This document shows positions 16,736-57,035 of a DNA stretch of 64,000 nt, one piece after another. The translations under genes and the position numbers were made by a program. The DNA is from Patescibacteria group bacterium (GTDB taxonomy: Bacteria > Patescibacteriota > Patescibacteriia > UBA2591 > JABMQE01): assembly GCA_018896645.1 (NCBI GenBank), contig JAHIMF010000005.1, positions 997 through 64,996 of the forward strand, written 5' to 3'. The notes under the pieces are model-generated. The model saw nothing but the letters and a program-made list of their open reading frames with translations. It was not told where the DNA came from and made no database searches. Each line of letters begins with the position of its first letter. The stretch's first letter is position 1.

Positions 16736-16748
16736 CCATGCTCATTAT

Positions 16749-26354: not shown

Positions 26355-26369
26355 ACATTTTTAGTCATT

Positions 26370-26729
26370 ATGATAATTAGAATTGCAGACCCAACCCAAA
26401 ATTCTTACAACCTCCTCCGCCAATGCGGATACGCAGTTTTTCGAGATCCTAACACTGGCAAAACTTCATATACTAAAAGGCTGGACCGGGATTATTATCC
26501 ACGATTTCATATTTATATGAATAAGGAAAGTGAGGGCGAGTTAGAATTAAATCTTCATCTTGATCAAAAACATGCCTCCTACAAAGGTCAGACTGCGCAT
26601 AGCGGTGAGTATGACGGGGACTTGGTGGAGCGGGAGGCGGAGCGGATAGAATCATTGGTAAATCAGGTTATTCACGAAACGGCGGAAAAGCCCAAGAAAG
26701 GATTTTTTACAAAATTGTTTGGTAAATAG
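26370..26729 (+). CDS. Hypothetical protein (119 aa)
   Basis: ORF with plausible spacing; no recognisable motif. Confidence 0.4.
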   Translation: MIIRIADPTQNSYNLLRQCGYAVFRDPNTGKTSYTKRLDRDYYPRFHIYMNKESEGELELNLHLDQKHASYKGQTAHSGEYDGDLVEREAERIESLVNQVIHETAEKPKKGFFTKLFGK

Positions 26730-26922
26730 TCAATAGCAACTGGTTACTAGCCACTAGGGGTTTTAAACCCTATGACTGTTTTATTGAACCAGTTTTTTTA
26801 TTTCCAAAAACTTCGAAAAATTAACCCTAGTTGCTAGTGACGAGCGACCAGTAAAGCGACGCCATTTGCCAAAAAATCAAAAATAAAGTAAGATACAATT
26901 AGTAATTCTTAAAATCAAAACA

Positions 26923-28140: not shown

Positions 28141-28491
28141 TTTTAATAAAAGAAAGATAAATCTGGTTGCTCTTTAATTAAATGAGAGGATAGCTATGGC
28201 TAAAAGAAAAAGAAAAGATTTTTTTGCAGACCATCCGAGTTTTATGGCTCTTGTTGTCAATAAAATTAGTTCTGGAATACGATTTCTCCTGAAAATAGTT
28301 ACCCAAATTTTCAACGAGCGAAAAGATAAACTTTTCATTGGGGGTGAGAAAAATGTTGAATAATAGTCATGAAAAATATTTAATTCTCCCAAGCCATGTA
28401 TGTTATTTGTTCCTTTTTGTTGTCGATGCTCTTTTGTCGATTTTCAAAAAAAATGGCAAGAGGTTATTTTTCTGACATCAGGAGATAGAAA

Positions 28492-28533
28492 AAGCCCTGT
28501 CCATTGAAACATCACAAGACAGGGCTTATTTTT
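28492..28533. terminator. Bidirectional rho-independent terminator (aaaaagccctgtc...gacagggcttatttttt)
   Basis: 9-bp stem with A-run and T-run flanks, between convergent reading frames. Confidence 0.65.
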
Positions 28534-28550
28534 TGCTGAGCAAGCACACC

Positions 28551-29306
28551 TCACTTGTGCCAACTCATAGGGTGGGTTTTTGTTGTCCCTTTTGGGACGA
28601 AGAACCATTTTTCCCCCTCGCAACAAAGGACTTCCCCGGTATTAAGGATGCTAATTCCCAGAACCTTAATGTTAGTTTTTTCAAGGCTAACCCATGTTTC
28701 GTTTTCGTCTTGCTGTTTTTTACCGTCAGGTTCCCAAGAAATCAACCATCCTCCCCAAGTACCACCTGGTCCAACAGGACGATTTTTTTTAATGATCAGC
28801 GCTATCCCCTCATCAATCTGAGAAAGATAATTTCTTACTGTTGGTTGGTAATAATAAAAGTTGCCATTCACGGCAATAAAGAGATCCCGCCATAGCCCAC
28901 TATGCATAAGAAATTTCCGAATATTTTTGCTCGCATCATGTTGAGAAACATCAACTGGCAAGAGCAGCAAAGAAATTACTAAAGCCTGTTTAATGACGGA
29001 CTCTTGTTGCGAAAAATTACCTTCATTTGTCCCTTTAAGAACAAGGGATCGAAAACAGTAGCGCTTTCCCTTATCGATTGATTTCCAAGAAAGCAATAAG
29101 GGATTACGAAAAATAGTATGCTCCGGTGATAATTCCTCTTGTTTTACAGTGATTTCCTGATAGTCTGCCTCCATAACTGTGAAATTTTGGAAACCAACCA
29201 TTTCAACCGCGAGATTTTTCAGAGCGCTAGGTAGGGGAGCAGCGCGAAGTATATAACTTGGAAAAATAACTGTAAGAATAACCAACAAACAGATTGTCCG
29301 CTTCAT
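28551..29306 (-). CDS. Secreted hypothetical protein (signal peptide MKRTICLLVILTVIF)
   Basis: Strong SD (AGGAGG) upstream of the internal ATG at about 29306; N-terminal signal peptide; no recognised domain. Confidence 0.55.
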   Translation of the reverse strand: MKRTICLLVILTVIFPSYILRAAPLPSALKNLAVEMVGFQNFTVMEADYQEITVKQEELSPEHTIFRNPLLLSWKSIDKGKRYCFRSLVLKGTNEGNFSQQESVIKQALVISLLLLPVDVSQHDASKNIRKFLMHSGLWRDLFIAVNGNFYYYQPTVRNYLSQIDEGIALIIKKNRPVGPGGTWGGWLISWEPDGKKQQDENETWVSLEKTNIKVLGISILNTGEVLCCEGEKWFFVPKGTTKTHPMSWHK

Positions 29307-29656
29307 TTTGGCCTCCTTTTGAAGTGGGTAGAAAAAAAAATATGCCAATGGCAAGTTTTTTCAAAGGCTTCCGATGGACAATTCTGTAGGAAGAGTATAT
29401 ACTGGATTAATAGACAAAAGCCTAGAACCCAATATTAACTTTGCGTCCTCCCTACAAAATTATCCATCGGAAAATTCGGATACTAATTTTCAAAGTTCAT
29501 ACTTCGCATTTAATTACTTCATCATAGCATATATTTTTAAACTTGTCAATGGGCGAAACAAAAATTTTAGGTAATTAAGGATATTTTTGGCTAAAATTAG
29601 CGTAAAATGATTACTAATTTACTTTATTACTTTATTGCTCGATTACTTAACAAAAT

Positions 29657-30703
29657 ATGTTCAACAACCTCCTCGGCCGTTTTTCCCGCGATATGGGTAT
29701 AGATTTGGGCACTGCCAATACTTTAGTCTATGTCCGTGATAAAGGAATTGTTATTAACGAGCCCAGTATCGTGGCTATCAATACCCGCGCTGACCAGATT
29801 TTAGCCGTGGGCGAAAACGCCAGGAAAATGTTAGGCAAAACCCCGCCCCATATTATTACTTCAAGACCACTATCCGATGGGGTGATTTCTGATTTTGAAA
29901 TTGCTGAAAGGATGTTAAAACATTTTATTGCCAAGGTTCATCAGGATAAATTTTCTTTTTATACCCGACCCCGAGTAATTATTGGGATTCCCTTGGAAAT
30001 AACTGAAGTAGAGCGTAAAGCAGTTGAAGACGCGGCGATGCAAGCTGGCGCCAGAGAGGTTTTTTTAGTGGAAGAGCCAATGGCCGCGGCAATCGGCGCT
30101 CGCCTTCCAATTCAAGAATCATGCGGTAATATGATTGTTGATATTGGCGGCGGCACTACAGAAATTGCTGTAATTTCCTTGGCAGGTATCGTCACCTGGA
30201 AATCTTTACCAATTGCCGGAAATGAACTAACTGAAGATATTATAGAATATGCCCGCGAAAAATATAATTTACTAATTGGCGAAACCACGGCTGAAGAGAT
30301 AAAAATAAAAATTGGCTCGGTTTTTCCCCTGGAAAAATCTTTAAAAACAATTATGCGGGGTCGGGATTTGGTTTCTGGTCTGCCTAAAGAAGAGACTATT
30401 ACTGATGAAGAGGTGCGAGAAGCGATGCAACGTTCGGCTAAAATCTTGGCTGTTAATATCCGCGATACTATAGAATCTACCCCGCCAGAATTAGTAGCGG
30501 ATATTTATAGCCGAGGCATAGTTTTATCAGGCGGCGGGGCTTTACTTAAAGGACTTCAAGATTTGATTTATAGAGAAGTCCAAGTGCCTATCCACATTAC
30601 TGATGACCCCCTAACTGCGGTGGTTCGCGGTTTAGGAATTATTATAGAAGACATGAATACTCTTAAAGATGTTTTGTTGCCTTCAGCTGGAGAAATCACT
30701 TAA
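29657..30703 (+). CDS. mreB: Rod-shape-determining protein MreB, copy 2, heading an mreBCD-mrdA operon
   Basis: GIDLGTANTLVYV, DIGGGTTEIAVISLAG, VLSGGGALLKGL. Confidence 0.9.
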   Translation: MFNNLLGRFSRDMGIDLGTANTLVYVRDKGIVINEPSIVAINTRADQILAVGENARKMLGKTPPHIITSRPLSDGVISDFEIAERMLKHFIAKVHQDKFSFYTRPRVIIGIPLEITEVERKAVEDAAMQAGAREVFLVEEPMAAAIGARLPIQESCGNMIVDIGGGTTEIAVISLAGIVTWKSLPIAGNELTEDIIEYAREKYNLLIGETTAEEIKIKIGSVFPLEKSLKTIMRGRDLVSGLPKEETITDEEVREAMQRSAKILAVNIRDTIESTPPELVADIYSRGIVLSGGGALLKGLQDLIYREVQVPIHITDDPLTAVVRGLGIIIEDMNTLKDVLLPSAGEIT

Positions 30704-30805
30704 TCGCATTTACTATTCATTATTTATTATTTACTATTCATTATTCACCACAATCTTTTCATAGCGAAACACTAGGAAAAAAATTAAAAAACAGAATAGT
30801 AAATA

Positions 30806-31663
30806 ATGAATTCCTTGATATTCTCATTATCAAAACTATTCAGCATGAACAAACTTTTATCAAAAACCGTAATTTCCATCACTACAGTAGCTGTCCTACT
30901 GATTTTTTTTCATTCTATTGGCTGGCTTAAGCCTTTTGAGGCTTTACTTGCGAAATCCGTGGGTAAACCCCAAGAATTTGTATACAATATTGCTTTAGGT
31001 TTTAAAAACATATTCACGGGTATTGATTTTAAAGAAGAGAATACCAGATTGAAAGCCGAACTTGAAGAGCATATTATTGATGGCGTGGCTTTAAAACTTT
31101 TGGAAGAGGAGAATAAAAGACTTAGGCAAGAATTGAATTTTTTGGAAATTAGGGGGTATGCTTATGTTTTAGCTCATATCATTGCCAGAGAACCGGAACT
31201 TGATCAAAAGATAGTAATACTTAATCAAGGCTCTGCTCAAGGCATTAAAAAGGGCTGCCCAGTAATTATTACTCGCAATGATGAAAGTTCTTTCACTCGA
31301 CCCGAAGGCTTTTTAGTTGGAAAAATTATCAAAGTCAGCACTTATAAATCATGGGTTGTCCTTCTACCTGATAACCGAAGCGCGGTTGCCGCAGAAATCC
31401 AAAGCAGAAAGGCATTATACGGATTAGTCAAAGGTGAGCGAGGATTATCATTAAACATGGATCTAATACCCCAGGGCACTGAAATTATTCCGGGTGATAC
31501 GGTTATAACTTCTGGTTTAGAAAATATGATTCCCAAGGGATTAATTATTGGTGAAGCAGAAACGATTGAATCTGTTCCGGGCGACTTTTTTCAAAAGGCA
31601 AAAATTAAACCCCTTGTTTCTTTTGATAATCTGAACCTGGTCACCGTATTAATTCCCAATTAA
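30806..31663 (+). CDS. mreC: Rod-shape-determining protein MreC
   Basis: N-terminal TM, coiled coil (LKAELEE...EENKRLRQELNFLE), C-terminal beta domains (GDTVITSGLENMIPKGLIIGE). Confidence 0.8.
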   Translation: MNSLIFSLSKLFSMNKLLSKTVISITTVAVLLIFFHSIGWLKPFEALLAKSVGKPQEFVYNIALGFKNIFTGIDFKEENTRLKAELEEHIIDGVALKLLEEENKRLRQELNFLEIRGYAYVLAHIIAREPELDQKIVILNQGSAQGIKKGCPVIITRNDESSFTRPEGFLVGKIIKVSTYKSWVVLLPDNRSAVAAEIQSRKALYGLVKGERGLSLNMDLIPQGTEIIPGDTVITSGLENMIPKGLIIGEAETIESVPGDFFQKAKIKPLVSFDNLNLVTVLIPN

Positions 31664-31806
31664 GGTTTGTATTGTTCGATAATAATTAACAAAATCAACA
31701 GAAAAGAAATATAGAAATTAAGAAATAGAGAAATAAAGGATTTGTTTGTTGGTAGCTGATATCCTTTTCCTATATTTCTTAGTTTCTTTATTTCTTAATT
31801 TCTATT

Positions 31807-32322
31807 ATGGCAAAAGGTTTTGGACAACTAATTTTTATAATCATAGCTATAATTTTTGAGTTAAGCGTATTAAGTCTTCTTTATCCTTTAAATCAAATCA
31901 GGCTAGTTTTAGTAATTGCCTTAATAATCGCTTTATCTGATTACAAAAAAGCTTTATTTTGGGTATTTCTTGGAGGATTAATTTTGGATACTTGTTCAGT
32001 CTTGCCTTTCTCAAGCATAACATTAAGCTTGTTTGTCGCGGTTACAATTATTTTTATTCTAGCCAGGAATACCTTTACCAGTGGATCATTATATGCGGTC
32101 ATTGCTCTGGGAATTATTGGCATAGTTATTTATAACCTTTCCTTGATATTGTTAGTTCATATTTTCTATTTATTAAAAATTACAGATTTTCAAATACAAT
32201 TTCACACTTTATACAGCCAAGATATGTTTTGGCAGATATTACTTAATACAACACTGATGGTGGGGATTTTCTGGTTAAGGAAGAGGATCAAAAAAAGACC
32301 CGAAGGAGCGGTATTAAAATAA
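31807..32322 (+). CDS. mreD: Rod-shape-determining protein MreD (polytopic membrane protein)
   Basis: Five hydrophobic helices; positioned between mreC and mrdA. Confidence 0.6.
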   Translation: MAKGFGQLIFIIIAIIFELSVLSLLYPLNQIRLVLVIALIIALSDYKKALFWVFLGGLILDTCSVLPFSSITLSLFVAVTIIFILARNTFTSGSLYAVIALGIIGIVIYNLSLILLVHIFYLLKITDFQIQFHTLYSQDMFWQILLNTTLMVGIFWLRKRIKKRPEGAVLK

Positions 32323-32483
32323 ACTCCTTTTAAAAAATCTTCTGAAGGGCTGAGTGTCTAGTAAAGTCTTAGGTTTGGGGTCCTAGCTGTAGGTTTGGTT
32401 AAAAATTATTAGTCATGGATTATCTAACAACTTAAGACTAAAGACTAAACTTACTGCTAAGACCATAAACCAATAACCCGAAA

Positions 32484-34409
32484 ATGGACGACCCCTTCAT
32501 CATACAGCACCAAGACAATGTTAAAGACGCTCGTCTTAATCAGTATACTGCTGGGTCAGACGAGGGTAATTTTTATTCTACGGAAAAAGGAACGTTTGAT
32601 TCGTTAAGGATTTCAATTTCCTGGCCGCGGTTAAGAATGTTTTTTATAATTGTGATGTTAGCGCTCTCGGTCCTGGTGCTGCGAGTTTTTTATCTGCAGA
32701 TTATTGAAGGTAATTATTATCGAACTGTAGCCGAAGGCAACCGAATTCGCATTAAACCAATAAAAGCGGTCCGGGGAATAATTTATGACAGGCAAGGAAA
32801 AATATTGGTAAGAAATGTGCCTAATTTTTCTTTGTTTTTTATACCCGGTGACTTGCCAAGAGAAGAAGATGAGTTAACAAAAATTCTAAATACTATTTCC
32901 GATATTTTGGAGTCACCAACCCTATATTTAAGAACTTTACTTGGAGATGTTTCTCCTTATTCATACGAGCCACTTTTAGTAGCTGAAAATATTAGCCATA
33001 GTAAAACCCTTTTATTAGAAATCGAAACCTCTATGATCCCCGGGGTGTTTTTAGAGACAAGAAGTCGAAGGGAGTATTTATTCTCCGATTCTGATTATGG
33101 TTTATCGCACATCCTGGGATATACAGGTAAATTATCGCCTGAAGAATATCAAGAAAGAAAAAATAAGGGTTATCTTCTTAACGATTATATTGGCAAAACA
33201 GGCATTGAATATAATTATGAGTTTTATTTGCGGGGTCAGGATGGAAAAAAGCGGATTGAAGTTGATTTTTTAGGCAAAGAAGAAAAAATTGTTTCTTTTT
33301 CACCTCCAAAAGACGGGCAAAGTCTTGTTTTATCAATAGACTTGGATCTACAGAAAAAAATCTCGGAAATTCTCCAAAAACAGCTGCGCCAAATCAAAAA
33401 GACTAAGGGAGTGGTAATAGTTACTGAAGTCAATTCTGGTGAAATTTTAGCCCTGGTTTCCGTGCCCAGTTATGACAATAATTTATTTGCCAGGGGTATT
33501 TCTAGAGAAAATTATGAAAAATTAATTAATGATGAATCAGAACCATTATTTAATCGGGCCATTGCTGGCGAATATCCTCCAGGCTCTACTATCAAACCAG
33601 TCTTAGCAGCCGCGGCTCTAGAGGAAGAGATTATTAATGAAAATACTACCTTTATAAGCACTGGAGGCATCTGGTTAAGCGAGTGGTTTTTTCCTGATTG
33701 GAAGGCCGGGGGTCATGGCCGCATTAATGTTACCCAGGCGATTGCTGAATCAGTTAACACTTTTTTTTACTATATCGGCGGCGGGCATGAAGAATTTAAA
33801 GGCCTGGGATTAGAAAAAATTAATTATTGGAGCTCGCTGTTTGGTTTTGGTCGGGATACAAAAATCGATTTACCGGGTGAGGGGTCAGGATTTTTACCGA
33901 CGAAACAATGGAAAATGGATACCCGGGAAGAACCCTGGTATATTGGTGACACCTATCATCTCGCAATCGGCCAAGGCGATATTTTAGTCACTCCGATTCA
34001 GGTAGCTAATTTTACTGCCGTGATTGCTAATGATGGGACTCTTTATAGGCCGCATTTACTTAAAAATCTCCTTCATGCAGACAATGAGACGGCGAGTGCT
34101 GTCCAAAATGAAATCTTGCGAACAAATATTGCTCAAAAAAAGAATTTAGAAATTGTAAGACAAGGAATGCGGGGGGCAGTTGTCTATGGTTCATCCCAAT
34201 CTTTGGCTGACCTGCCAATAGCAGTTGCCGGTAAAACCGGCACAGCTCAAGTGGGCGGCGAGAAAGACCCGCATGCCTGGTTTACTGGTTTTGCGCCTTA
34301 TGAAAATCCCGAAATAGCCATCACAATTTTAATAGAGAATGGGGGAGAGGGCAGTCGGGTAGCGGTGCCGATTGCTAAGGAGATTTTACAATATTATTTT
34401 GGACAATGA
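32484..34409 (+). CDS. mrdA: Penicillin-binding protein 2 (elongasome transpeptidase)
   Basis: N-terminal TM and dimerisation domain; transpeptidase motifs STIKP (SxxK), SVN (SxN), KTGTA. Confidence 0.9.
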   Translation: MDDPFIIQHQDNVKDARLNQYTAGSDEGNFYSTEKGTFDSLRISISWPRLRMFFIIVMLALSVLVLRVFYLQIIEGNYYRTVAEGNRIRIKPIKAVRGIIYDRQGKILVRNVPNFSLFFIPGDLPREEDELTKILNTISDILESPTLYLRTLLGDVSPYSYEPLLVAENISHSKTLLLEIETSMIPGVFLETRSRREYLFSDSDYGLSHILGYTGKLSPEEYQERKNKGYLLNDYIGKTGIEYNYEFYLRGQDGKKRIEVDFLGKEEKIVSFSPPKDGQSLVLSIDLDLQKKISEILQKQLRQIKKTKGVVIVTEVNSGEILALVSVPSYDNNLFARGISRENYEKLINDESEPLFNRAIAGEYPPGSTIKPVLAAAALEEEIINENTTFISTGGIWLSEWFFPDWKAGGHGRINVTQAIAESVNTFFYYIGGGHEEFKGLGLEKINYWSSLFGFGRDTKIDLPGEGSGFLPTKQWKMDTREEPWYIGDTYHLAIGQGDILVTPIQVANFTAVIANDGTLYRPHLLKNLLHADNETASAVQNEILRTNIAQKKNLEIVRQGMRGAVVYGSSQSLADLPIAVAGKTGTAQVGGEKDPHAWFTGFAPYENPEIAITILIENGGEGSRVAVPIAKEILQYYFGQ

Positions 34410-34417
34410 CATACATT

Positions 34418-34500
34418 TCCACGACACACGATACACGTAACATGATACAAAAATTCGCATATTGAGTTGTGATGCGTGAATCGTGTATCGTGCTCGCAGT
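34418..34500. repeat. Inverted repeat cacgatacacg ... cgtgtatcgtg (second member of the family seen after infA)
   Basis: Arms separated by about 40 nt; shares gaatcgtgtatcg with 4409-4433. Confidence 0.55.
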
Positions 34501-34694
34501 TATCCACACCCCCCTTGACCCATTCATAAAAACAGTGTATCGTTAAAATTGTAACTGAATCTCCAATAATCAAGCTCACCCTTTCGACTAGCTCCGGGTG
34601 ATTTTAAAAATTTTTCATATTCATAATAAATAATTTTAATCTACCCTAACCAGTATTATTTTGAATCAATGGCACGGGGTAAAAATTAAAAAGC

Positions 34695-35165
34695 ATGATT
34701 GAAGATCAAACTTATATTACCAAAGAAAAATTAAAAGAATTAAAAAAAGAACTTGACTATTTGAAAACTACTAAAAGACGGGAGATTGCTAATCGAATTC
34801 GAGAGGCTAAAGAACTTGGCGACTTGAGTGAGAATGCTGAATACGCTGATGCTAAAGATGAACAGGGCTGGACCGAGGGGAGAATTCTAAAAATTGAAGA
34901 CATTTTGCGAAGAGCGGTTTTGATTGAGAGTAATCATAAAAATCACTCCGCAATAATCAATGTGGGTTCAAAAATAAAAGTTAAAGTTTCTGACTCGGAA
35001 AAAAATTTTGAGATTACTGGTTCCCAGGAAGCCGACCCCCCAAATGGCAAAATTTCCAATGAATCACCCCTAGGTAAAGCTTTTCTTGGTAAAAAAGCGG
35101 GCGATGAGGTGGAAGTTGAAGTGCCAAAAGGAGTGATAAAATATAAGATTATTGCGATTAGTTGA
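34695..35165 (+). CDS. greA: Transcription elongation factor GreA
   Basis: Coiled-coil N-domain with acidic tip (LGDLSENAEYADAKDEQ) and FKBP-like C-domain. Confidence 0.9.
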   Translation: MIEDQTYITKEKLKELKKELDYLKTTKRREIANRIREAKELGDLSENAEYADAKDEQGWTEGRILKIEDILRRAVLIESNHKNHSAIINVGSKIKVKVSDSEKNFEITGSQEADPPNGKISNESPLGKAFLGKKAGDEVEVEVPKGVIKYKIIAIS

Positions 35166-35223
35166 TTAGCCAGTCATTAGGAATGAGTCATCAGGCATTA
35201 GGGTTTTGTAAGATATAATCATC

Positions 35224-35259
35224 TACAAAAAAACGGGCGTGAGAGCGCTTGTTTTTTTG
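35224..35259 (+). repeat. Direct repeat copy 1 (tacaaaaaaacgggcgtgagagcgcttgtttttttg), identical to 37162-37197
   Basis: Exact 36-nt match at both ends of the REC/hypothetical/small-ORF island. Confidence 0.9.
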
Positions 35260-35315
35260 TTATTTTTTGGCGCCTGCGCCTTTTCTTTTTTAAAAAGATA
35301 TGTTAGAATTTAAAT

Positions 35316-35792
35316 ATGGAAAAAGAAACTGGTTTTAGCCCAGAAAAAGAACCAACCCTTTCAAAAGAAATTTGGATTATTGATGACGAAAAAGAAATAA
35401 TAAAGGGTGTTTTAAGATTTTGGCAAATGAAGACTAAGAATTTAGGTTATGATTTTAAGCACTTTGAAACCGGCCAATCTGCTTTGGAAGAAATCAAAAA
35501 GAGAAAAGAGTCAAAAGAAAGATTGCCAGAAATGGTTTTTGTTGACGGTGAATTAGAAAAAGATCAAGGAGAATTAAGCAAAGGAGTAAATTTTATTAAA
35601 GAAATTAGAAGTATAGATGGGGTTAAGCAACCAAAAATCGTGGCCCATAGTTCTGATTTTGCTAATAATGTTGAACTATTGATGGCTGGGGCTGATTTGG
35701 GTTTTCAAAAACAAGATATTACTAAATCAGCTGAGTTCTTACAAGACCCGGAACATTACAAACATTATTTTAAAAAGCCGGAAGAAGAATAG
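35316..35792 (+). CDS. Stand-alone response-regulator receiver (CheY-like REC) domain protein
   Basis: IWIIDDEKEI...FETGQSALEEI...PEMVFVDGEL...PKIVAHSS...LLMAGADLGFQK. Confidence 0.65.
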   Translation: MEKETGFSPEKEPTLSKEIWIIDDEKEIIKGVLRFWQMKTKNLGYDFKHFETGQSALEEIKKRKESKERLPEMVFVDGELEKDQGELSKGVNFIKEIRSIDGVKQPKIVAHSSDFANNVELLMAGADLGFQKQDITKSAEFLQDPEHYKHYFKKPEEE

Positions 35793-35956
35793 ATTTTTGA
35801 TTATCCATATTGACTTTTTTATTAGAGATTGATAGAATAAAAATAGTTATGGAAAAGAAGGCTGACTTTTCCAAATAAAAATAAATTTCCTCGCCGCAAG
35901 CGGACGGGGTATTAAAAAATTTTGATAAATTTATCAATTTAGAAAGGAATAAAACT

Positions 35957-36967
35957 ATGCCAAAATCGCCAGAACAACTTCGTTATACCGAAGATGAGGC
36001 CTTGGAGGAAGCTTCTGAAATGAAGGAAAAGGTAGAACACAAAGAAGCAAAAGATTATGAGGAAGCGGAAGAAGGGAAAACGCCAGAAGCAAAAGAAACC
36101 AAGAAACTTCCACCAGTTTTTCTTATCTATCGTAATAATAATGTATTTGAAAAGTTAGTTCCAAAAATTGCAGAAACATTTGGATCACTAGACCGGGAAG
36201 TAAAAATACAAAGTTTTCCGGCTGGAACTGATCAAATAAAAATTCTTAACTGGATACTAACAAATAGTAAAGAGATTGCTGGCACAGAAATAGTTACTGA
36301 TGAAACAGTTAAATACGCATTTTCCGGCATCGAAGATGAAATGCGCCATTTTCCTGATCCAAACGAAGAAGCGGCTAAAGAAAAGGCTATGAAAGTTTTA
36401 AAGAATTGCAGTAGACATTATGAATATTTAGATTTTTTTGAGCCACCCCTAATTGGCGAAACACTTTTTGGAAAAAATTACTCCGATGAGTTTCACGAAA
36501 AAGCAGAATCATTGGAAAAGAGCGGTGAGCTAATCTCTGACATAGTTAAACGCATTATTATAAATAAAGATAATATACCACAAAAAGTATATATATCTCG
36601 GCAGGAGATATTTGCGCATCAACCACTTAGACAAATTCCTGAAAATCCTAGATACGAAAGTGAAGAGGAATTGATGAAGGGCATAGAAATAGTAAAAGAA
36701 TGGCTTATTAAAGGAGGGATTCCAAAAGAAGCGTTTGTCGAAGGTGAATTCGAGCATAATTTGTCCTGGGTAATTATGGATAGACATAGCAGAAGTTATC
36801 CCCAGGGAGATAAAATTAAGATCATAAGTGGTCAAAAAGAAATAACATTAGGATTACCTCTTTCTAATTTTTTCCAAGATGCTTGCAAGACCGGGTTGAT
36901 TACATTGACACCAGAGGAAAAACAGAGATACAATAAATTGTTAAAAGAAAAACTAATTAAACTTTAA
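35957..36967 (+). CDS. Hypothetical protein (336 aa) with an acidic N-terminus
   Basis: Long ORF with no recognisable motif; inside the direct-repeat-bounded island. Confidence 0.5.
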   Translation: MPKSPEQLRYTEDEALEEASEMKEKVEHKEAKDYEEAEEGKTPEAKETKKLPPVFLIYRNNNVFEKLVPKIAETFGSLDREVKIQSFPAGTDQIKILNWILTNSKEIAGTEIVTDETVKYAFSGIEDEMRHFPDPNEEAAKEKAMKVLKNCSRHYEYLDFFEPPLIGETLFGKNYSDEFHEKAESLEKSGELISDIVKRIIINKDNIPQKVYISRQEIFAHQPLRQIPENPRYESEEELMKGIEIVKEWLIKGGIPKEAFVEGEFEHNLSWVIMDRHSRSYPQGDKIKIISGQKEITLGLPLSNFFQDACKTGLITLTPEEKQRYNKLLKEKLIKL

Positions 36968-36987
36968 ACACCAAACAACAGGAGGGA

Positions 36988-37143
36988 ATGATGGAAAAGC
37001 AAGAATTTCAGAAAAGGGTAGAGGAAGCTATGAAGAAATGTCTTGAGGCGCATCAACACAATCATCTTCTTTATCAGCCAACCAAGATAACTGAATACAA
37101 GATTGACTTCAAAAGAAAGCTGGCGGCTTGGATACTCTTTTAG
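36988..37143 (+). CDS. Small protein (about 50 aa), not in the ORF track
   Basis: Consensus SD AGGAGG 5 nt upstream of the ATG at 36991 (tandem ATG-ATG from 36988). Translation MMEKQEFQKRVEEAMKKCLEAHQHNHLLYQPTKITEYKIDFKRKLAAWILF. Ends 19 nt before direct-repeat copy 2. Confidence 0.45.
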   Translation: MMEKQEFQKRVEEAMKKCLEAHQHNHLLYQPTKITEYKIDFKRKLAAWILF

Positions 37144-37161
37144 CAGATTGTAACGGATTAT

Positions 37162-37197
37162 TACAAAAAAACGGGCGTGAGAGCGCTTGTTTTTTTG
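37162..37197 (+). repeat. Direct repeat copy 2 (identical 36-mer)
   Basis: See copy 1. Confidence 0.9.
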
Positions 37198-37229
37198 ACA
37201 ATAAATGGGATACGGATTATAATTAGAAT

Positions 37230-38750
37230 ATGAAAGGAACAAAAAATATAATAACTGACGAGTCCGCCTCTGCTAAGGCTATGGCTGGTGAACATCAAAT
37301 GCGCCTCAAGCGGCTGGAAAAAATTAAAAAGCAGGGGATTAATCCTTATCCCAGCCAAACCCGCAAAACTCACCAAATTAGCGAGTTAAATTTGGATTTT
37401 GATGATTTAGGCGCAAACAAGACAAAAGTGAGCATAGCGGGCAGAATTAGAGCTCTCCGAGGCCATGGGGGTTCTACTTTTGCGAATATTGAAGATGAAT
37501 CTGATAAATTTCAGGTATATTTTAAAAAGGATGAATTAGGCGAGGATAAATACAGTTTGGTTAATCTGTTGGATGTGGGCGACTTTATAGCATGCAGCGG
37601 CGAACTGTTTAAAACCAAAAACGGCGAAAAAACCCTAATGGTCCAAAACTTTGAGATTTTAAGTAAAGCGATTTTGCCGTTGCCAGAAAAATGGCATGGC
37701 TTAAGCGATGTGGAAATTAGGTATCGCAAACGCCATCTTGATTTAATAGCTAATCCCAAAGTGAGAAACATTTTTGAAAAACGCAGTTTAATTTTAAAAA
37801 CCTTAAGAAATTTTTTAGAAAATAAAGGATTCCTAGAAGTAGAAACACCTGTGCTTCAACCAATGGCTGGCGGAGCTACTGCTAAGCCTTTTGTCACTCA
37901 TCACAATGCTCTAGACATTGATATGTATTTACGCATCGCGCCCGAGCTGTATCTTAAACGGCTGATTGTCGGTGGGTTTGAAAAAATTTATGAAGTGGCG
38001 CGCTGTTTCCGCAACGAAGGCATTGATTGGCAGCATAATCCGGAATTCACCCAGATTGAATTTTACTGGGCTTATGCTGATTATGAAGATTTGATAGAGC
38101 TGACCGAAGAAATGTTTGTAGAGTTGATGAACAAAGTCAACGGCAAAAAAATGACCTTGGAATTTGAAAAAGCGAAAATCGACTTTACGCCTCCTTATGA
38201 TCGCTTAAGTTTTCGCGAGGGAATCAAAAAATATGCTAAATTTGATATTGAAGAATATCAGGATAAAACCAAGTTGGCCAAGAAAGCTAAAGAACTTAAT
38301 GTTGAGATTAAAAAACAAGATGGGCGGGGAAAGATTTTGGACGAAATTTATAAAGAATACGTGCGTAAAAATATTCACAAACCAACATTTATAATTGATC
38401 ATCCAATTGAATTATCGCCCCTAGCTAAACAAAAAGAAGATAATCCAAATTATGTCCAACGTTTACAGTTAGTTGTGCCTGGCGGTTTGGAAATGTGCAA
38501 TGCTTTTACCGAGCTTAATGACCCCCTTGAACAAGCGGTTCAATTTAAGGCCCAGCAAAAGTTAAAAATGGCTGGTGATGAAGAAGCCCAGGAATTTGAT
38601 AAAGATTATGTAGAAGCCATGGAACACGGTATGCCGCCTTGCGCTGGATATGGGATTGGCATTGACCGGCTGACGCAAATTTTGACAAATTCGCATAATA
38701 TCAAAGAGGTGATATTATTTCCGACATTAAGGCCAAAATATAGAGGATAA
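37230..38750 (+). CDS. lysS: Lysyl-tRNA synthetase (class II)
   Basis: OB-fold N-domain, motif 2 (FRNEGIDWQHNPEFTQIEFYWAY), motif 3 (GIGIDRLTQIL). Confidence 0.92.
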   Translation: MKGTKNIITDESASAKAMAGEHQMRLKRLEKIKKQGINPYPSQTRKTHQISELNLDFDDLGANKTKVSIAGRIRALRGHGGSTFANIEDESDKFQVYFKKDELGEDKYSLVNLLDVGDFIACSGELFKTKNGEKTLMVQNFEILSKAILPLPEKWHGLSDVEIRYRKRHLDLIANPKVRNIFEKRSLILKTLRNFLENKGFLEVETPVLQPMAGGATAKPFVTHHNALDIDMYLRIAPELYLKRLIVGGFEKIYEVARCFRNEGIDWQHNPEFTQIEFYWAYADYEDLIELTEEMFVELMNKVNGKKMTLEFEKAKIDFTPPYDRLSFREGIKKYAKFDIEEYQDKTKLAKKAKELNVEIKKQDGRGKILDEIYKEYVRKNIHKPTFIIDHPIELSPLAKQKEDNPNYVQRLQLVVPGGLEMCNAFTELNDPLEQAVQFKAQQKLKMAGDEEAQEFDKDYVEAMEHGMPPCAGYGIGIDRLTQILTNSHNIKEVILFPTLRPKYRG

Positions 38751-38753
38751 GCT

Positions 38754-39530
38754 TTGACTATGTCCATCCAACGCAAAAATTTCAAACTAAAAGATTTAAA
38801 GTATAAAGTTGACAAAAAAATAAGTCAGCAAATTTTGGATTTACAAAAAAAATTTGATGAAAAATTTAACAGAGATGAGCAGAAAAAATTAGCATTTTCA
38901 GAAAAAGTGGATTTTGTTTATAATACTACGGCCTTAGAAGGCAATACTTATACTTATGCGGAGACCGAAACTTTGCTTTCTGGAGTAACAATCGGTGGAC
39001 ATTCTATAAAAGAGACCAACGAGATTATCAATCAAAAAGAGGCCTGGGAATTTACCTTGAATCAAGCTTTTTCAAATTCAAAGGATATAACAGAAACTTT
39101 GATAAAAGATATTCATTTTAGAGTTGGGAAAGACACGGTGGTAAAACCAGGGCAGTATCGGGATGGCCGAGTCAAAATCGGCGGTACTGATTATGTGCCG
39201 CCGAAAACAAAATTAGAAATTGATAATTTGATTAAAATTTTTTTGATTGATTTTGCTAATTTAGAAAAAGATATTTTTTTAAAAGCAATTATAATCCATT
39301 TTGTGATTGCTTTAATTCAACCATTTTACGATGGCAATAAAAGAACAGCGCGACTGCTGATGAATTTTATTTTGTTACAAAATAATTATCCTTTGTTTTC
39401 GGTTCCAGCTAAAATGCGCAAAGAGTATGTTGAGGCCATGATTAAGGGATATGAGAGTTTGGATATTAGTGGTTTAGTTGAGTTGTTGAAAGGGTTGATG
39501 ATTGAGAGATTGGAGGATTATGGGATTTGA
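38754..39530 (+). CDS. Fic/DOC family protein with a degenerate active-site motif (QPFYDGNKRTAR instead of HPFx[DE]GNGRxxR)
   Basis: Fido-fold spacing and the ...PFYDGN.R.ARLL core; the catalytic His is Gln in this sequence. Confidence 0.7.
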   Translation: MTMSIQRKNFKLKDLKYKVDKKISQQILDLQKKFDEKFNRDEQKKLAFSEKVDFVYNTTALEGNTYTYAETETLLSGVTIGGHSIKETNEIINQKEAWEFTLNQAFSNSKDITETLIKDIHFRVGKDTVVKPGQYRDGRVKIGGTDYVPPKTKLEIDNLIKIFLIDFANLEKDIFLKAIIIHFVIALIQPFYDGNKRTARLLMNFILLQNNYPLFSVPAKMRKEYVEAMIKGYESLDISGLVELLKGLMIERLEDYGI

Positions 39531-39603
39531 TTCTTAGGAGCTGAATTTGACAAAAATTTTGCGTTTGGTATTATATATATAATCGATATTTAATCCATAT
39601 ATT

Positions 39604-39858
39604 ATGGCTATTGTAAATTTTTCTATTCCAACTACCCTTGAAAAGAGGGTTGGGCAAACTATAAGGGAAAAGGGTTTCAGCAGTAAAGCCGAATTTTTTC
39701 GTTATGCGGCAATTTATTTTATTGATGTTGTAGATGATTCAGCTATATCCGAAGACGAACGCATTAAATATCTAAGCGATGCCATTACTCGAGAAGTTAT
39801 AAAAAAATTTCACAATAAAAAAATTCCTCCTGTGGAGGAACAACTAGCAGATATATAA
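39604..39858 (+). CDS. Ribbon-helix-helix (CopG/ParD-like) putative antitoxin
   Basis: N-terminal beta-strand VNFSIP followed by a helix pair; precedes a RelE-like ORF by 9 nt. Confidence 0.45.
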   Translation: MAIVNFSIPTTLEKRVGQTIREKGFSSKAEFFRYAAIYFIDVVDDSAISEDERIKYLSDAITREVIKKFHNKKIPPVEEQLADI

Positions 39859-39867
39859 TTTCTTTTT

Positions 39868-40212
39868 ATGTATGAGATAATAGTTTTACCTCATTTCCAC
39901 GGACAGTTGAAGCGTTATGCTAAAAAGTATCGTCATATTAAGAATGATGTTATTGAAAAGTTAAGGGGTTTTGATAAAAGACAGCATGTTTATCTTGGTA
40001 ATCGTATCTATAAATTACGGCTTAAATCGAAAGATATCCCCAGAGGTAAGAATAAATCATTGCGGTTAGTTATTTTGGTGGTAGAAATGACCAGTGCTAT
40101 TGTGCCGGTTATTTTATATTTTAAAGGGGATCGTGAAGATATCAGCAAGAAAGAACTAAAAGAGCATTTACAAATAATATTATTTGAACTAGAATTATAC
40201 CATGACTCGTGA
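39868..40212 (+). CDS. RelE/ParE-superfamily putative toxin
   Basis: Size and pattern (..HFHGQLKRY...LGNRIYKLRL...LRLVILVVE...) are compatible with a RelE fold. Confidence 0.4.
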   Translation: MYEIIVLPHFHGQLKRYAKKYRHIKNDVIEKLRGFDKRQHVYLGNRIYKLRLKSKDIPRGKNKSLRLVILVVEMTSAIVPVILYFKGDREDISKKELKEHLQIILFELELYHDS

Positions 40213-40786
40213 TGAAGCGTTACAATTAGTTCATAAGTACGTGAAGACCGATAACAGCGTTAAACACATGCTGGCGACCGAAGCTATTATGCGAGCATTG
40301 GCACGTCATTTTGGCGAAGACTCCAAGTCATCCGACGGGGTAAACGAAGAAAAATGGGGTTTAGCGGGTTTGGTGCATGATATTGATATGGAAGAGGTAG
40401 ATTATCGCAATGAGCCGACTAAGCATGGGCCAAGATCAATAGAAATTTTAAAAGAAAATGGACTGACAGATGAGGAAATCTTGAATGCCGTTTTAGCGCA
40501 TAATGAGGCTTTGGGCGGGGAGCGGGGGACTAAAATTGAAAAAGCCATCCACTCGGTTGACCCCTTGACAGGTTTGATTGTGGCTGCTACACTGGTTTTA
40601 CCCTCTCGTAAATTAGCTGATGTGACAGTTGAAAATATTTTAAATAGATTTAAAGAAAAACATTTTGCCCGTGGCGCTAATCGGGAGATTATTGCCAGAT
40701 GTGAGGAGTTGGGATTATCTTTGAAAGAATTCTGTAAGATTGGGTTGGAAGCCATGCAGGGGATATCAGATGAACTTGGGCTATAA
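40202..40786 (+). CDS. HD-domain phosphohydrolase (YqeK-like)
   Basis: H...HD metal-binding motif (MLATEAIMRAL...LAGLVHDID) and downstream His residues. Confidence 0.7.
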   Translation: MTRDEALQLVHKYVKTDNSVKHMLATEAIMRALARHFGEDSKSSDGVNEEKWGLAGLVHDIDMEEVDYRNEPTKHGPRSIEILKENGLTDEEILNAVLAHNEALGGERGTKIEKAIHSVDPLTGLIVAATLVLPSRKLADVTVENILNRFKEKHFARGANREIIARCEELGLSLKEFCKIGLEAMQGISDELGL

Positions 40787-40821
40787 AAATGTTCATTATA
40801 ATAATTTCATATGGACGGGAA

Positions 40822-40923
40822 ATGACATTAGGCATTTTGCCTGCTGTTGTAATGGGGGCATTGAGTCTTCTGGTGATTAGTTCGCTCTTGGCAAAAGTGC
40901 TCCACAAAATCCGCACCCACTAG
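40822..40923 (+). CDS. Putative small TM peptide (33 aa)
   Basis: MTLGILPAVVMGALSLLVISSLLAKVLHKIRTH; first of three tandem short hydrophobic ORFs. Confidence 0.25.
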   Translation: MTLGILPAVVMGALSLLVISSLLAKVLHKIRTH

Positions 40924-40943
40924 TTTGATACGGAGGATAAATC

Positions 40944-41060
40944 ATGAAAGATATCTGGGTTTTGGCTTTGTTCCCCTTGGCTGGGTTTGCAATTTGGCTA
41001 GCGGCTAAAATCGGCGCCTGGAGAGAGATAAAAAATTTACAAAGCAAGAGTAAAAAATGA
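40944..41060 (+). CDS. Putative small TM peptide (38 aa)
   Basis: SD GGAGG 7 nt upstream; MKDIWVLALFPLAGFAIWLAAKIGAWREIKNLQSKSKK. Confidence 0.35.
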   Translation: MKDIWVLALFPLAGFAIWLAAKIGAWREIKNLQSKSKK

Positions 41061-41203
41061 TTAATTCCACTGTTGTTTTACCGGGAGGCATCACCCTTTT
41101 TATGGAGGATAAAAAAATGGAAGCTAGGATTATGTTGATTATATGTTGCGCGTTGTTGCTTTTATTAATGCTTTATAAAAACAGGCCACCCCCAGGATAT
41201 TAG
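41057..41203 (+). CDS. Putative small TM peptide (48 aa, or 29 aa from an internal SD-ATG)
   Basis: Start overlaps the previous stop (ATGA); the internal GGAGG-N8-ATG gives MEARIMLIICCALLLLLMLYKNRPPPGY. Confidence 0.25.
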   Translation: MINSTVVLPGGITLFMEDKKMEARIMLIICCALLLLLMLYKNRPPPGY

Positions 41204-41245
41204 TTAGAAAATGGTACCCACAGAGAAATAAGGATACCACAAAAA

Positions 41246-41280
41246 GCGTTGTCAAACAAAGACAGCGCTTTTTTTATTGC
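41246..41280 (+). terminator. Rho-independent terminator (aaagcgttgtcaaacaaagacagcgcttttttt)
   Basis: Stem with one mismatch followed by a T7 run. Confidence 0.6.
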
Positions 41281-41365
41281 TTAATATAATATTTTTAGTT
41301 AAAATTAAGATAGGGATTAAAACGGAAACATTTGGTAGATAAAATAAAATTTAAAAAGATTTAAA

Positions 41366-43243
41366 ATGAAAAAGGCTATATTTATTATTTTAGGAATTAT
41401 AGTTATTATTGGTGTATCTCTTGGGGGTTACCGTTATTTTAAACGTGGAGAAAAAATTAATTTTGATTATATTATTACTGAAAGAGGTGAACTTGTCCAA
41501 GAGGTTAATATTACCGGTCGGATAAAGCCAGCCGAAAGCGTTGACCTGGCCTTTGAAAATACCGGAAAAATAGCCAATATTTATGTACAAATAGGTGATA
41601 AAGTAACCACGAGTCAAATCTTAATTGAAATAGATAATACTGATGCCAATGCCCAGCTGGCACAAGCTCAAGCCGGGGTGGATAGCTCTCAAGCTGAACT
41701 TATTCAATATCAAGCAACTTTGGAAGCCCAGCAAACAAAATTACTCGAACTAATCAAAGGAACAAGGCCCGAAGAAATTCAATTATCAGAAACAAAAGTT
41801 ATAAATGCACAAAAAGCATTGGCCGACGCCCAAGAAAACCTTAAAAACACTTTAAACAAAGCTGAAACCGAACTAGCCAAGGCCCAGCAAACAAAAACTG
41901 ATGCCGAGATAAACTTGGCCAACATTACGAGTAAATCTGGAAGTGATTTAGCCGACCTTTACAGCAAAGCAGGAGATATTCTTGATGATGCTTATGCTAA
42001 AGCTGATGATGCTGTTAAAAATAGAACAAGTGGAATCTTCACTGCTGGTTCTAATAAATTATCTTTTGCTACAACTAATTCACAAGCAAAGTCTGATGCG
42101 GAATCACAAAAGCCAGTGGTTGAAAACGCACTTAATGAACTTAATGCCTTAGTGTATAATCTTACCTCTGATTATATTGACCTAGACGAAGCTCTTGCAA
42201 GGGTAAAAGATTATTTAATTATTATAAAAGATTTTTTTTCTCGGTTAGACACCGCTCTTAGCAGCGCCGCTGATTTATCTCAAACAACACTCACTACTTA
42301 TCAAACAAACACTTACACGGCTCGCACCAATGTTAATACTGTTCTTTCCAATATTAATGTTCAACAAAACGCTATTACAACCCAAAACCAAACGAATCAA
42401 ACTAATATTGATACGGCTCAGTCTCAACTTAATACAACCAAAGCAGCCCTATCCTTGCAAGAAGCCGCAAACCAAAGTAATGTCTCCACAGCCCAAGCAG
42501 GTATTACTACGGCTCAAAATACTTTAGCCAGCGCTCAAGATGAACTCTCACTTAAGAAAGCTGGTTCCACAGCGGAACAAATTGCGGTTCAACGGGCAAT
42601 TATAAAACAAGCTCAAGCAAACACATCCGCCCAAAGAGCTAGAATAAAACAAGCTGAAGCAAATTTACAAAACTATCAAGCCCAAAAAGAAAAAACAACC
42701 ATTCGAGCACCTATGGATGGAATCGTAACAAAACAAGATGCTAAAGTTGGCGAAATTGTCTCGGCTTCCGCCAACATTATTTCCCTTATCTCGGAAAAAC
42801 AATTTGAAATTGAGGCTTTAATACCAGAAGCAGATACTGCTAAAGTTAAAGTCAATGATTTGGCAAAAGTTACTCTTGATGCCTATACTAATAATATTAT
42901 TTTTAAGGCTAAAGTAATTCGGATTAATCCTGCGGAAACTATGATTGAAGGCATGGCTACTTATAAAACGATATTACAATTTGCGGATGATGATGAACGG
43001 ATAAAATCCGGCATGACTGCTAATGTTGATATTTTAACTAATAAAAGAGAGAATGTTATTGCTATTCCCGGACGGGCTGTGATTTCCAGAAATGGCGGAA
43101 AAATGGTTCAAATAGTTAGAGATGATGATACGATTACAGAAGTAGAGGTAAAAACCGGCATTCGCGGTTCTGATGGTCGGATAGAAATTTTGAGCGGAGT
43201 TAGCGAGGGTTATAAAGTAATTACTTTTATGGAAGAAGAGTAA
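41366..43243 (+). CDS. HlyD-family periplasmic adaptor (membrane-fusion protein) with a very long coiled-coil hairpin
   Basis: N-terminal TM, biotinyl-lipoyl-like halves (GELVQEVNITGRIKP / IRAPMDGIVTK), about 330-aa Q/A/T-rich coiled coil, C-terminal beta-barrel. Confidence 0.8.
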   Translation: MKKAIFIILGIIVIIGVSLGGYRYFKRGEKINFDYIITERGELVQEVNITGRIKPAESVDLAFENTGKIANIYVQIGDKVTTSQILIEIDNTDANAQLAQAQAGVDSSQAELIQYQATLEAQQTKLLELIKGTRPEEIQLSETKVINAQKALADAQENLKNTLNKAETELAKAQQTKTDAEINLANITSKSGSDLADLYSKAGDILDDAYAKADDAVKNRTSGIFTAGSNKLSFATTNSQAKSDAESQKPVVENALNELNALVYNLTSDYIDLDEALARVKDYLIIIKDFFSRLDTALSSAADLSQTTLTTYQTNTYTARTNVNTVLSNINVQQNAITTQNQTNQTNIDTAQSQLNTTKAALSLQEAANQSNVSTAQAGITTAQNTLASAQDELSLKKAGSTAEQIAVQRAIIKQAQANTSAQRARIKQAEANLQNYQAQKEKTTIRAPMDGIVTKQDAKVGEIVSASANIISLISEKQFEIEALIPEADTAKVKVNDLAKVTLDAYTNNIIFKAKVIRINPAETMIEGMATYKTILQFADDDERIKSGMTANVDILTNKRENVIAIPGRAVISRNGGKMVQIVRDDDTITEVEVKTGIRGSDGRIEILSGVSEGYKVITFMEEE

Positions 43244-55414: not shown

Positions 55415-55499
55415 ATTAGTTTCCCTTTTTATAACAATTTGGATTAAACTAAATTGTTATATTGATTAAAATTTTTTTAGGATTTAGTTAGTAATGAAT

Positions 55500-56951: not shown

Positions 56952-57035
56952 TTTTTTGGATGATGAATTATTTTATTATGGGATAGGCGAATTCAACGGA
57001 TTTGTTTTGATTGAATTCGTTGATATTATTCTTAA

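Follow-up and report, generated by a model that had tools for sequence, protein, structure and literature searches.

What occupies the spacer between two essential genes that elsewhere lie side by side? The question is raised by a 64-kb stretch of DNA from a Patescibacteria group bacterium (contig JAHIMF010000005.1, here called the window), in which a three-gene islet lies between greA and lysS and is bounded by two identical copies of a 36-nt direct repeat. In the original prediction, this arrangement was read as an insertion or cassette between repeats, and a receiver domain and an unknown effector within it were proposed to form a phosphorelay-controlled system. The former reading is borne out by the ancestral greA-lysS adjacency and by an exact empty site that retains the repeat once. 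The locus is probably a small, cargo-only, integrase-less flexible islet in the conserved greA-lysS spacer, gained and lost by host recombination across terminator copies. Patescibacteria (Candidate Phyla Radiation) possess tiny genomes with few recognisable mobile elements, and the strain-level gain and loss of accessory genes is therefore poorly documented in this group.

The repeats, the terminator and the empty site

The 36-mer, TACAAAAAAACGGGCGTGAGAGCGCTTGTTTTTTTG, is present in two exact copies on the + strand (35224-35259 and 37162-37197, 100% identical) that bracket about 1.9 kb, and an exact match search agrees in this with the original prediction. A third copy was not found in the window with 3 mismatches allowed (0 expected by chance), and neither the exact nor the loop-free form matched anything in genome, metagenome and viral contig collections. 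The fetched loci amount to 1.23 Mb, and within them the core of the hairpin is confined to the islet borders and the homologous sites of sister contigs. Since these three public collections yielded no match, the repeat is not a widespread element. The check for copies elsewhere thus speaks against a dispersed repeat, as the 36-mer is absent from the rest of the window, from unrelated fetched loci and from the three collections.

Each copy consists of a 16-bp stem, a GAGA loop and a T-run (folded in context: -19.5 kcal/mol for copy 1 and -19.6 kcal/mol for copy 2, the latter with a z of -6.6). Two G-U pairs make the hairpin weaker on the - strand (-12.4) than on the + strand, and a terminator scan labels the 36-mer as terminator-like. 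Copy 1 sits 59 nt past the greA stop and copy 2 sits 18 nt past the stop of a 51-aa open reading frame (ORF), the last one of the islet. Another locus, L002 (L-numbers denote contigs or loci retrieved for comparison), likewise has its own terminator 3' of greA. The features expected of an intrinsic terminator, namely a stable GC-containing hairpin, an immediate T/U-run and a position 3' of a gene, are all found in the 36-mer, which is the complete intrinsic terminator hairpin of greA. The final 3 nt of copy 2 (TTG) complete the -35 box of the predicted lysS promoter. The features of the insertion site are as follows.

34695-35165, + strand: greA, transcription elongation factor, left backbone gene (Pfam GreA_GreB_N 89 bits, GreA_GreB 80 bits)
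35224-35259, + strand: repeat copy 1, greA terminator, left border of the islet (exact 36-mer, fold, terminator scan)
35260-37197, + strand: 1938-nt unit, i.e. the islet plus one repeat copy, absent from L097 (contig alignment)
37162-37197, + strand: repeat copy 2, now the terminator of the islet, right border (exact 36-mer, fold)
37195-37223, + strand: predicted lysS promoter, TTGACA-17-TATAAT, 12/12 (promoter scan; junction identical in L097)
37230-38750, + strand: lysS, class II lysyl-tRNA synthetase, right backbone gene (Pfam tRNA-synt_2 312.9 bits, tRNA_anti-codon)

The neighbourhood of lysS was compared in 80 loci retrieved via LysS by a search of GTDB species representatives, in which the best relative showed 55% identity and which served for synteny only. 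A greA homologue was present in 42 of them, and in 41 of these 42 greA ends 28-341 nt before lysS, compared to a spacer of 2064 nt in the window. The 41 adjacent loci include Clostridia as well as the Patescibacteria-like L002 (pbp2-greA-217 nt-lysS, the order of the window) and L058. Judged from this distribution, greA-lysS adjacency is the ancestral state.

The sole exception is L001 (Patescibacteria), where a different 4.9-kb insert (1065-6000) lies between greA and lysS. Two of its ORFs are candidates for a recognisable function: one of 273 aa looks like a zinc-finger transposase and one of 360 aa has a MYG1-like N-terminal motif. As a different insert is found at the same place, the greA-lysS spacer is a recurrent insertion spot.

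The empty site itself was found in a sister metagenome-assembled genome (MAG; GCA_022012905.1), of which contig L097 was retrieved with the exact LysS of the window. Nucleotides 1-165 of this contig correspond to window 35095-35259 and nucleotides 130-4321 to window 37162-41353 (4192 nt), both at 100% identity. The order is greA 3' end, a single 36-mer, lysS promoter and lysS, with a spacer of 126 nt and exactly 1938 nt missing. The empty-site check suggested for the locus thereby had a positive outcome, with one repeat copy between perfectly identical flanks. From this base-perfect empty site it follows that the islet is a real and recent gain/loss polymorphism and that the terminator is the crossover site.

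A third haplotype is seen in L095 (GCA_018894455.1) and L096 (GCA_022012905.1), which were retrieved via the receiver protein of the islet and are 99.93-99.98% identical to window 25509-35150. At positions 9643-9911 of these contigs, a 269-nt hairpin-rich segment takes the place of window 35151-35226, and the C-terminus of greA reads KILSVN (KIIAIS in the window). Identity resumes at 35227, where the A-run of the hairpin begins, and runs to 35759, the end of both contigs; the loop of their hairpin reads GAAA and not GAGA. The left junction of greA, hairpin and receiver gene is thus reproduced in two further assemblies. The population contains at least three haplotypes: occupied (window), empty (L097) and occupied with another left flank (L095/L096), and two independent breakpoints coincide with the hairpin.

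Two more observations concern these sister contigs. Four or five strong hairpins are predicted in the 269-nt segment (z about -3.8), which may be a cluster resembling repetitive extragenic palindromes (REP-like) or an unknown RNA; a search of Rfam gave nothing above threshold in this segment of L095 or in window 30000-42000. Further downstream, the identity between L097 and the window stops at window 41353, beyond which L097 (4322-5765) contains an IS256/Mutator-family transposase gene and the window a HlyD/MacA-like gene. Some 4 kb downstream, from 41354 onward, the strains thus differ in structure a second time.

The three genes and the phosphorelay reading

The islet contains ORFs of 158, 336 and 51 aa, all on the + strand. 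Both the ORF list and the sequence agree with the three-gene content that had been described, including the AGGAGG before the small ORF. The internal features are given below.

35301-35309, + strand: putative extended -10 element (TGtTAGAAT), 6 nt 5' of the receiver ATG (read by eye; unlisted by the consensus scan)
35316-35792, + strand: stand-alone CheY-like receiver protein, 158 aa (Pfam Response_reg, residue alignment, homologues)
35810-35838, + strand: promoter-like TTGACT-17-TAGAAT with TG, 5' of the 336-aa gene (consensus scan 10/12)
35889-35918, + strand: small GC-rich hairpin, of which the 3' half plus TATTAAAAA forms a 23-nt motif (exact 23-mer, fold)
35957-36967, + strand: 336-aa protein of an uncharacterised family (HMMER family, alignment, AlphaFold)
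36988-37143, + strand: 51-aa ORF, putative gene, with AGGAGG (36979-36984) 4 nt upstream (ORF list, sequence)

The element at 35301-35309 is probably the receiver gene's own promoter, and the transcript would then have no leader or almost none. A similar arrangement can be observed for the receiver gene and lysS (35304-35318 and 37218-37232): 6 nt separate the end of the -10 box from the ATG and a Shine-Dalgarno sequence is lacking, which suggests that both transcripts are leaderless. In contrast, the 336-aa and 51-aa ORFs do have a Shine-Dalgarno sequence. Neither GC content (33.9% in the islet versus 36.7% in the window) nor skew distinguishes the islet.

The 23-nt motif GCAAGCGGACGGGGTATTAAAAA has exact copies at 35896-35918 and 12083-12105. 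A second copy had already been noticed and does exist, although it starts at 12083 rather than 12085, a trivial offset. At 12046-12098, directly after a gene stop, the hairpin is present in a longer version (-28.6 kcal/mol, z -3.7), while the one between the receiver and 336-aa genes is a shortened and weak version (z -1.8). This hairpin may be another duplicated terminator.

The receiver protein scores 25.9 bits against Pfam Response_reg (E 1.2e-5), which is below the gathering score of 30.2 bits. Its residues D23, D24, D77 and K132 align with D12, D13, D57 and K109 of CheY, and also with those of Spo0F, while the receiver Thr/Ser position aligns ambiguously to an Ala/His-Ser-Ser stretch. A word-indexed search of 5.8 billion proteins returned only four homologues, with 59-80% identity. 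With a dN/dS of 0.11-0.22 versus two homologues, the gene is, by this estimate, under purifying selection. A paralogue is present in the sister MAG (L093 10001-10489, and L094), with 80% protein identity and 82% DNA identity over window 35341-35849, including the downstream promoter-like site (35810-35838), which is thus also kept 3' of the paralogue. It is preceded by MFS, PIN and 55-aa genes, and the contigs stop about 70 nt beyond it. This second copy indicates that the receiver module has been duplicated in the genome.

The 336-aa protein had been described as an unknown without recognisable motif. Remote-homology and structure searches did indeed come back empty; however, the protein has relatives in about 170 clusters, which make up a family with invariant residues. 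An exhaustive HMMER search returned 172 cluster representatives (E<=1e-3, 250-400 aa), of which 82 at E <= 1e-10, and the family size is taken from this search. A word-indexed search with the protein itself had given the impression of an orphan, which the 172 clusters rule out, and a word-indexed search with the family profile gave just 2 proteins. The family is apparently restricted to Patescibacteria, and its alignment shows Y58, R59, N61, D115, T117, H221, R276, H277 and P301 to be invariant. When provided with a 50-sequence alignment, AlphaFold predicts a two-lobed alpha/beta structure (pLDDT 85.3, pTM 0.76) with a less confident, variable acidic N-terminal helix; on the sequence alone the pLDDT is 38. 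Foldseek found nothing significant in the PDB and BFVD (best E = 0.0096, TM <= 0.33), and its weak matches are generic Rossmann-/flavodoxin-like folds: FolD, carbamoyltransferases, PTS IIA/IIB and PurE. Profile searches were empty for PDB sequences, Pfam (all 50 members), NCBIfam, PADLOC and PHROGs. Profile-profile comparison of the family with the receiver alignment did not reveal any relationship, so that no pseudo-receiver can be recognised in the N-terminal domain. The invariant polar residues suggest an enzyme or a ligand-binding protein.

The neighbours of the family members comprise housekeeping genes (aminoacyl-tRNA synthetases, SmpB, IF3, guanylate kinase, FtsEX) as well as toxin-antitoxin and similar genes (AbiEii, DUF6922, HicAB, MNT/HepT and one PycTM-like). 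The latter is a single case: in L106 a gap of 9 nt separates the homologue (971-2047) from a downstream gene (2056-2577) with a borderline match to PycTM, a Pycsar effector (27.6 bits versus a cut-off of 27.2). In four related genomes the family gene stands stably beside smpB, without repeats. A single copy is present per contig, clusters at 90% identity have 1-3 members and no genome with multiple copies was found. The stable smpB synteny and the lack of multicopy genomes lead to a reading of the family as frequently exchanged cargo and not as a transposase.

Could the three genes together encode an undescribed accessory or defence system under phospho-regulation, with the 336-aa protein as an effector controlled by the receiver and the small protein as a partner? 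Several features would fit. The genes are co-oriented and share a common terminator, the receiver retains its acidic pocket, phospho-acceptor Asp and Lys under apparent purifying selection, and the 336-aa family has enzyme-like invariant residues and members among toxin-antitoxin and defence genes (AbiEii, HicAB, MNT/HepT, PycTM-like). However, in none of 18 independent loci (0/18) does the 336-aa homologue adjoin a receiver gene or a counterpart of the 51-aa ORF, so that the proposed co-occurrence check turned out negative. In L098, the gene that comes after the receiver homologue (69% identity) is polysaccharide-deacetylase-like and bears no relation to the 336-aa protein, while the L093 paralogue comes after a PIN gene. 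Each of the islet genes has a promoter-like site of its own. The 51-aa ORF had no Pfam, NCBIfam, PADLOC or PHROGs match and no homologue in the fetched loci, and none of the three proteins matched PADLOC-DB 2.0 better than E = 0.016. A histidine kinase (HisKA/HATPase_c) was not seen among the window ORFs scanned, namely most of those of about 110 aa or longer. The 18 loci, the L098 neighbour and the lack of a kinase among the scanned ORFs speak against the phosphorelay proposal, and a joint system is considered highly improbable.

Bracketed cassettes in related loci and the mode of exchange

Repeats around 336-family genes are not confined to the window. In L100 the gene is bracketed by a 39-nt terminator hairpin repeat (95% identical), and the right copy starts 2 nt after its stop. 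In L112 the repeat is likewise a terminator hairpin, of 33 nt and perfect; here the distance from the gene stop to the right copy is 5 nt and a TrmB-like gene is co-resident. The perfect repeat of L088 (at least 46 nt) holds the promoter of the downstream gene. In L089, 58-75 nt of the 5' end of a downstream HD gene are repeated (6799-6873 and 8282-8356), and the left end of the cassette carries a lysS 3'-end fragment with a promoter. The most elaborate arrangement is that of L081, where the lysS 3' end and a promoter/UTR/first-codon block occur three times (3315-3446, 5200-5255, 6593-6742; UTR, untranslated region) and the HD 5' end is repeated as well (6528-6588, 9131-9191). In both L081 and L089, the repeated fragments separate successive cassettes, one of which holds the 336-aa homologue. 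The junction of HD 5' end and lysS 3' end looks like the scar of a tandem duplication or of a circle junction. The 230-aa gene after lysS in L081 was considered as a degenerate 336-family paralogue, which the comparison ruled out.

Bracketing was scored when a repeat of at least 30 nt and at least 85% identity was found within 1.5 kb on both sides. By this measure, 5/18 336-family genes are bracketed compared to 6/100 other genes of the same loci (Fisher p = 0.012), and 5/6 of these bracketed other genes sit in or beside the same cassettes. When the window is omitted, as it was picked for its repeat, the proportion is 4/17 (p = 0.038). The signature is not exclusive to the 336-aa family. In the window itself, a purD-like ATP-grasp gene (55662-56951, - strand) has gltX (57036-58508, - strand) on one side and, on the other, a pseudo-copy of ~60 codons from the gltX 3' end, with repeats at 55473-55650 and 57029-57206 (83% identity over 143 nt) and an in-frame stop in the pseudo-copy. 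As with lysS, the gene end concerned is that of a tRNA synthetase gene.

How, then, may the islet be exchanged? A recombinase or transposase was not found among the three islet ORFs (ORF list; Pfam, NCBIfam, PHROGs), terminal inverted repeats are absent from the islet ends beyond the hairpin's own palindrome, and the phage, plasmid and IMG/VR collections contain no relatives of the islet. The locus is therefore not an insertion sequence or transposon, for which a transposase, terminal inverted repeats and a short fixed duplication would be expected, the duplication here being 36 nt. Of the marks of an att element, the identical terminal direct repeats and the one-copy empty site are present, while an element-encoded integrase was not found. 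The suggested att-type integration or cassette can be kept as far as the repeat-bounded, cassette-like unit is concerned. That the repeats are att sites of a site-specific integrase is the less likely part, as the islet encodes no recombinase and the repeat is the greA terminator.

In the proposed mechanism, the whole hairpin has been duplicated: greA would keep its terminator, the islet would gain one, and the -35 box of lysS would be rebuilt at the right junction. By this duplication the neighbouring greA and lysS would stay correctly expressed. Recombination between the 36-bp copies would excise or delete the islet and leave one copy behind. Conversely, a circle with one copy could re-enter the empty site via a single crossover; its predicted junction is ...GGATTAT + 36-mer + TTATTTTTTGGCGCC.... 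Host functions would act here, either by short-homology recombination or by hairpin-promoted, RecA-independent recombination or slippage. Since no recombinase accompanies any of the cassettes and their repeats vary in sequence, length and kind, host recombination is favoured. The first duplication of the hairpin might result, for example, from a staggered break flanking the extruded hairpin or from integration of a circle. The three genes would be co-resident cargo with their own promoters and not a conserved operon. Integrase-less, RecA-independent excision between flanking repeats has been described in E. coli for the H47 island and for a 34-bp FRT construct (PMC3191183, PMC5426353).

Several points weigh against this explanation. 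The right junction (51-aa ORF, hairpin, lysS) was seen in the window's own contig alone, and every haplotype is a metagenome assembly. The occupied/empty difference may reflect an insertion or a deletion, and the initial duplication of the terminator is not explained by recombination alone. In addition, RecA-dependent recombination is hardly efficient with repeats much shorter than 36 bp, so that a dedicated recombinase encoded elsewhere may be involved.

Such a recombinase acting in trans is the main rival. The islet would then be a cis-mobilisable element with the hairpin as a true att site (attL/attR, and attB in the empty strain), and a tyrosine or serine recombinase would be provided from elsewhere in the genome or by a helper element. 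The identical direct repeats, the empty site with exactly one copy and the third haplotype's breakpoint at the hairpin edge would all be expected. The tandem lysS 3'-end fragments between the cassettes of relatives resemble classical att sites in gene 3' ends, and tycheposon islands follow the same logic with partial tRNAs. Moreover, a XerC/D-like tyrosine recombinase gene of the Phage_integrase family (49815-50780) lies 12.6 kb away. However, no recombinase is found inside or adjoining the islet, and the XerC/D-like gene, the sole one seen in the window, resembles a housekeeping Xer in its context (beside serS and ftsQ-like genes). The cassette repeats are furthermore unrelated in sequence, length (33-130 nt) and kind (terminator, promoter, coding 5' or 3' ends), which argues against one site-specific enzyme. 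Recombination in trans is thus judged rather unlikely. A more specific idea is that Patescibacteria add small cassettes in a way not described before: cassettes would insert at structured signals, chiefly whole terminator hairpins, and would duplicate 33-39 bp so that each unit keeps a terminator, with the 336-aa family (YR-N / D-T / DRH) as preferred cargo or as the enzyme. If true, a new class of minimal mobile elements would be represented by the islet, which would not be passive cargo, but this idea is doubtful. A further reading, in which a minimal element is moved by the 336-aa protein as its own mobility enzyme, inserts at hairpins or other sites and duplicates a 33-75 bp target, is very unlikely. 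In its favour, the family is bracketed more often than neighbouring genes, the cassettes of L088, L089 and L100 hold this gene alone, the repeat is a whole 33-39 nt terminator hairpin in three cases, and Tyr, Arg, His and Asp are invariant. On the other hand, a mobility enzyme would be hard to reconcile with one copy per contig, with 90% clusters of 1-3 members and with stable smpB synteny in four related genomes. The gene-to-repeat distances as well as the lengths and kinds of the repeats vary, the purD-like cassette has the same signature without a 336-family gene, and similarity to a recombinase or transposase family or fold was not found.

An artefact should also be considered, be it a chimeric assembly at a short repeat or dispersed terminator/REP-like repeats that flank ordinary genes. 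All data are metagenome-assembled, the sister contigs break within or near the islet, and other hairpin families are repeated in the genome, such as GGAACCATTCGCGCGAATGGTTCC with six copies. However, 36 nt is shorter than the usual final assembly k-mers, so both junctions require spanning reads, and the left junction recurs in two other assemblies. The 36-mer is not found in the rest of the window, at unrelated sites of the fetched loci or in the three public collections. The flanks of the occupied and empty alleles are 100% identical over 165 and 4192 nt. It is thus hardly credible that the islet is an artefact, and an integrase-less islet exchanged by host recombination remains the preferred explanation.

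A few other features of the window stand apart from the islet. The six copies of GGAACCATTCGCGCGAATGGTTCC, a terminator-like palindrome, lie at 10520-10559, 12213-12252, 16714-16753, 58852-58891, 61009-61048 and 61344-61383. An operator-like palindrome, TATGACCGTTTGGACGGTCATA, overlaps TATAAT boxes and has five copies (11640-11675, 12114-12149, 12159-12194, 16590-16625 and 16621-16656). Both families are intergenic and occur in a glycosyltransferase cluster and elsewhere. At 24168-24367, a 100-nt unit is perfectly duplicated in tandem between two genes, just 5' of the ribosome recycling factor gene (24370-24924). Finally, a UDP-glucose/GDP-mannose dehydrogenase gene (128-2806) is split by an intein with a LAGLIDADG homing-endonuclease domain.

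Significance and likeness to known systems

The locus provides a pair of occupied and empty alleles, resolved to the base pair and with 100% identical flanks. It illustrates that a complete terminator hairpin can act as a crossover site, with a duplication that keeps the essential greA and lysS terminated and promoted. The duplicated-flank signature recurs with lysS 3' ends, an HD 5' end, promoters, terminators and a gltX 3' end, and genome flux in the lineage may generally proceed in this manner. With ~170 clusters and a confident model without structural match in the libraries searched, the 336-aa family merits structural and biochemical work. The locus is not a new functional system, and it may serve as a cautionary case: a receiver beside an unknown protein in an island resembles a system and yet fails the co-occurrence test.

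The closest parallels are the H47 island and the 34-bp FRT repeats in E. coli, where, as in the islet, cargo lies between direct repeats without a recombinase of its own and host functions are implied (PMC3191183, PMC5426353). Excision likewise leaves one repeat, and re-integration needs the same site (PMC3191183, PMC5426353). The H47 island differs in its size of 13 kb and its long, imperfect repeats, whereas the islet unit measures 1.9 kb and its perfect 36-bp repeat comprises an entire terminator hairpin. In addition, excision was demonstrated for H47 and FRT, while the mobility of the islet is inferred from a natural presence/absence polymorphism.

CIMEs and other att-flanked island remnants also consist of cargo bounded by copies of an attachment sequence. 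The tycheposon islands of Prochlorococcus form arrays at tRNA genes, and tandem accretion with repeated lysS 3' ends can be observed in L081. Unlike in CIMEs and tycheposons, neither a cognate integrase nor a helper was found; the targets are a terminator, a promoter and the ends of protein genes instead of tRNA genes, and the repeat sequence differs between the Patescibacteria cassettes.

Integron cassettes (attC- or VCR-flanked) are, like the islet, short units between directly oriented repeats that are imperfect palindromes, one of which excision would leave behind. However, the islet setting has neither IntI nor attI, there is a single cassette and its genes have promoter-like sites of their own. 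The attC site has a bipartite R''-L''/L'-R' architecture and is usually 57-141 nt long; judged from its sequence, the 34-nt hairpin of the islet has neither of these properties.

At the level of its cargo, the islet receiver resembles single-domain regulators of the CheY, Spo0F and DivK type, which have the receiver fold of ~120 residues without an output domain and with which the acidic pair, the Asp and the Lys align. It deviates from these by a 20-residue N-terminal extension, an insertion after beta3, the sub-threshold Pfam score and the lack of a kinase found nearby. Overall, the locus is an integrase-less, repeat-bounded flexible islet, and its distinctive trait is that the repeat is a whole terminator and that the duplication of this terminator keeps the expression signals of the two essential neighbours intact.

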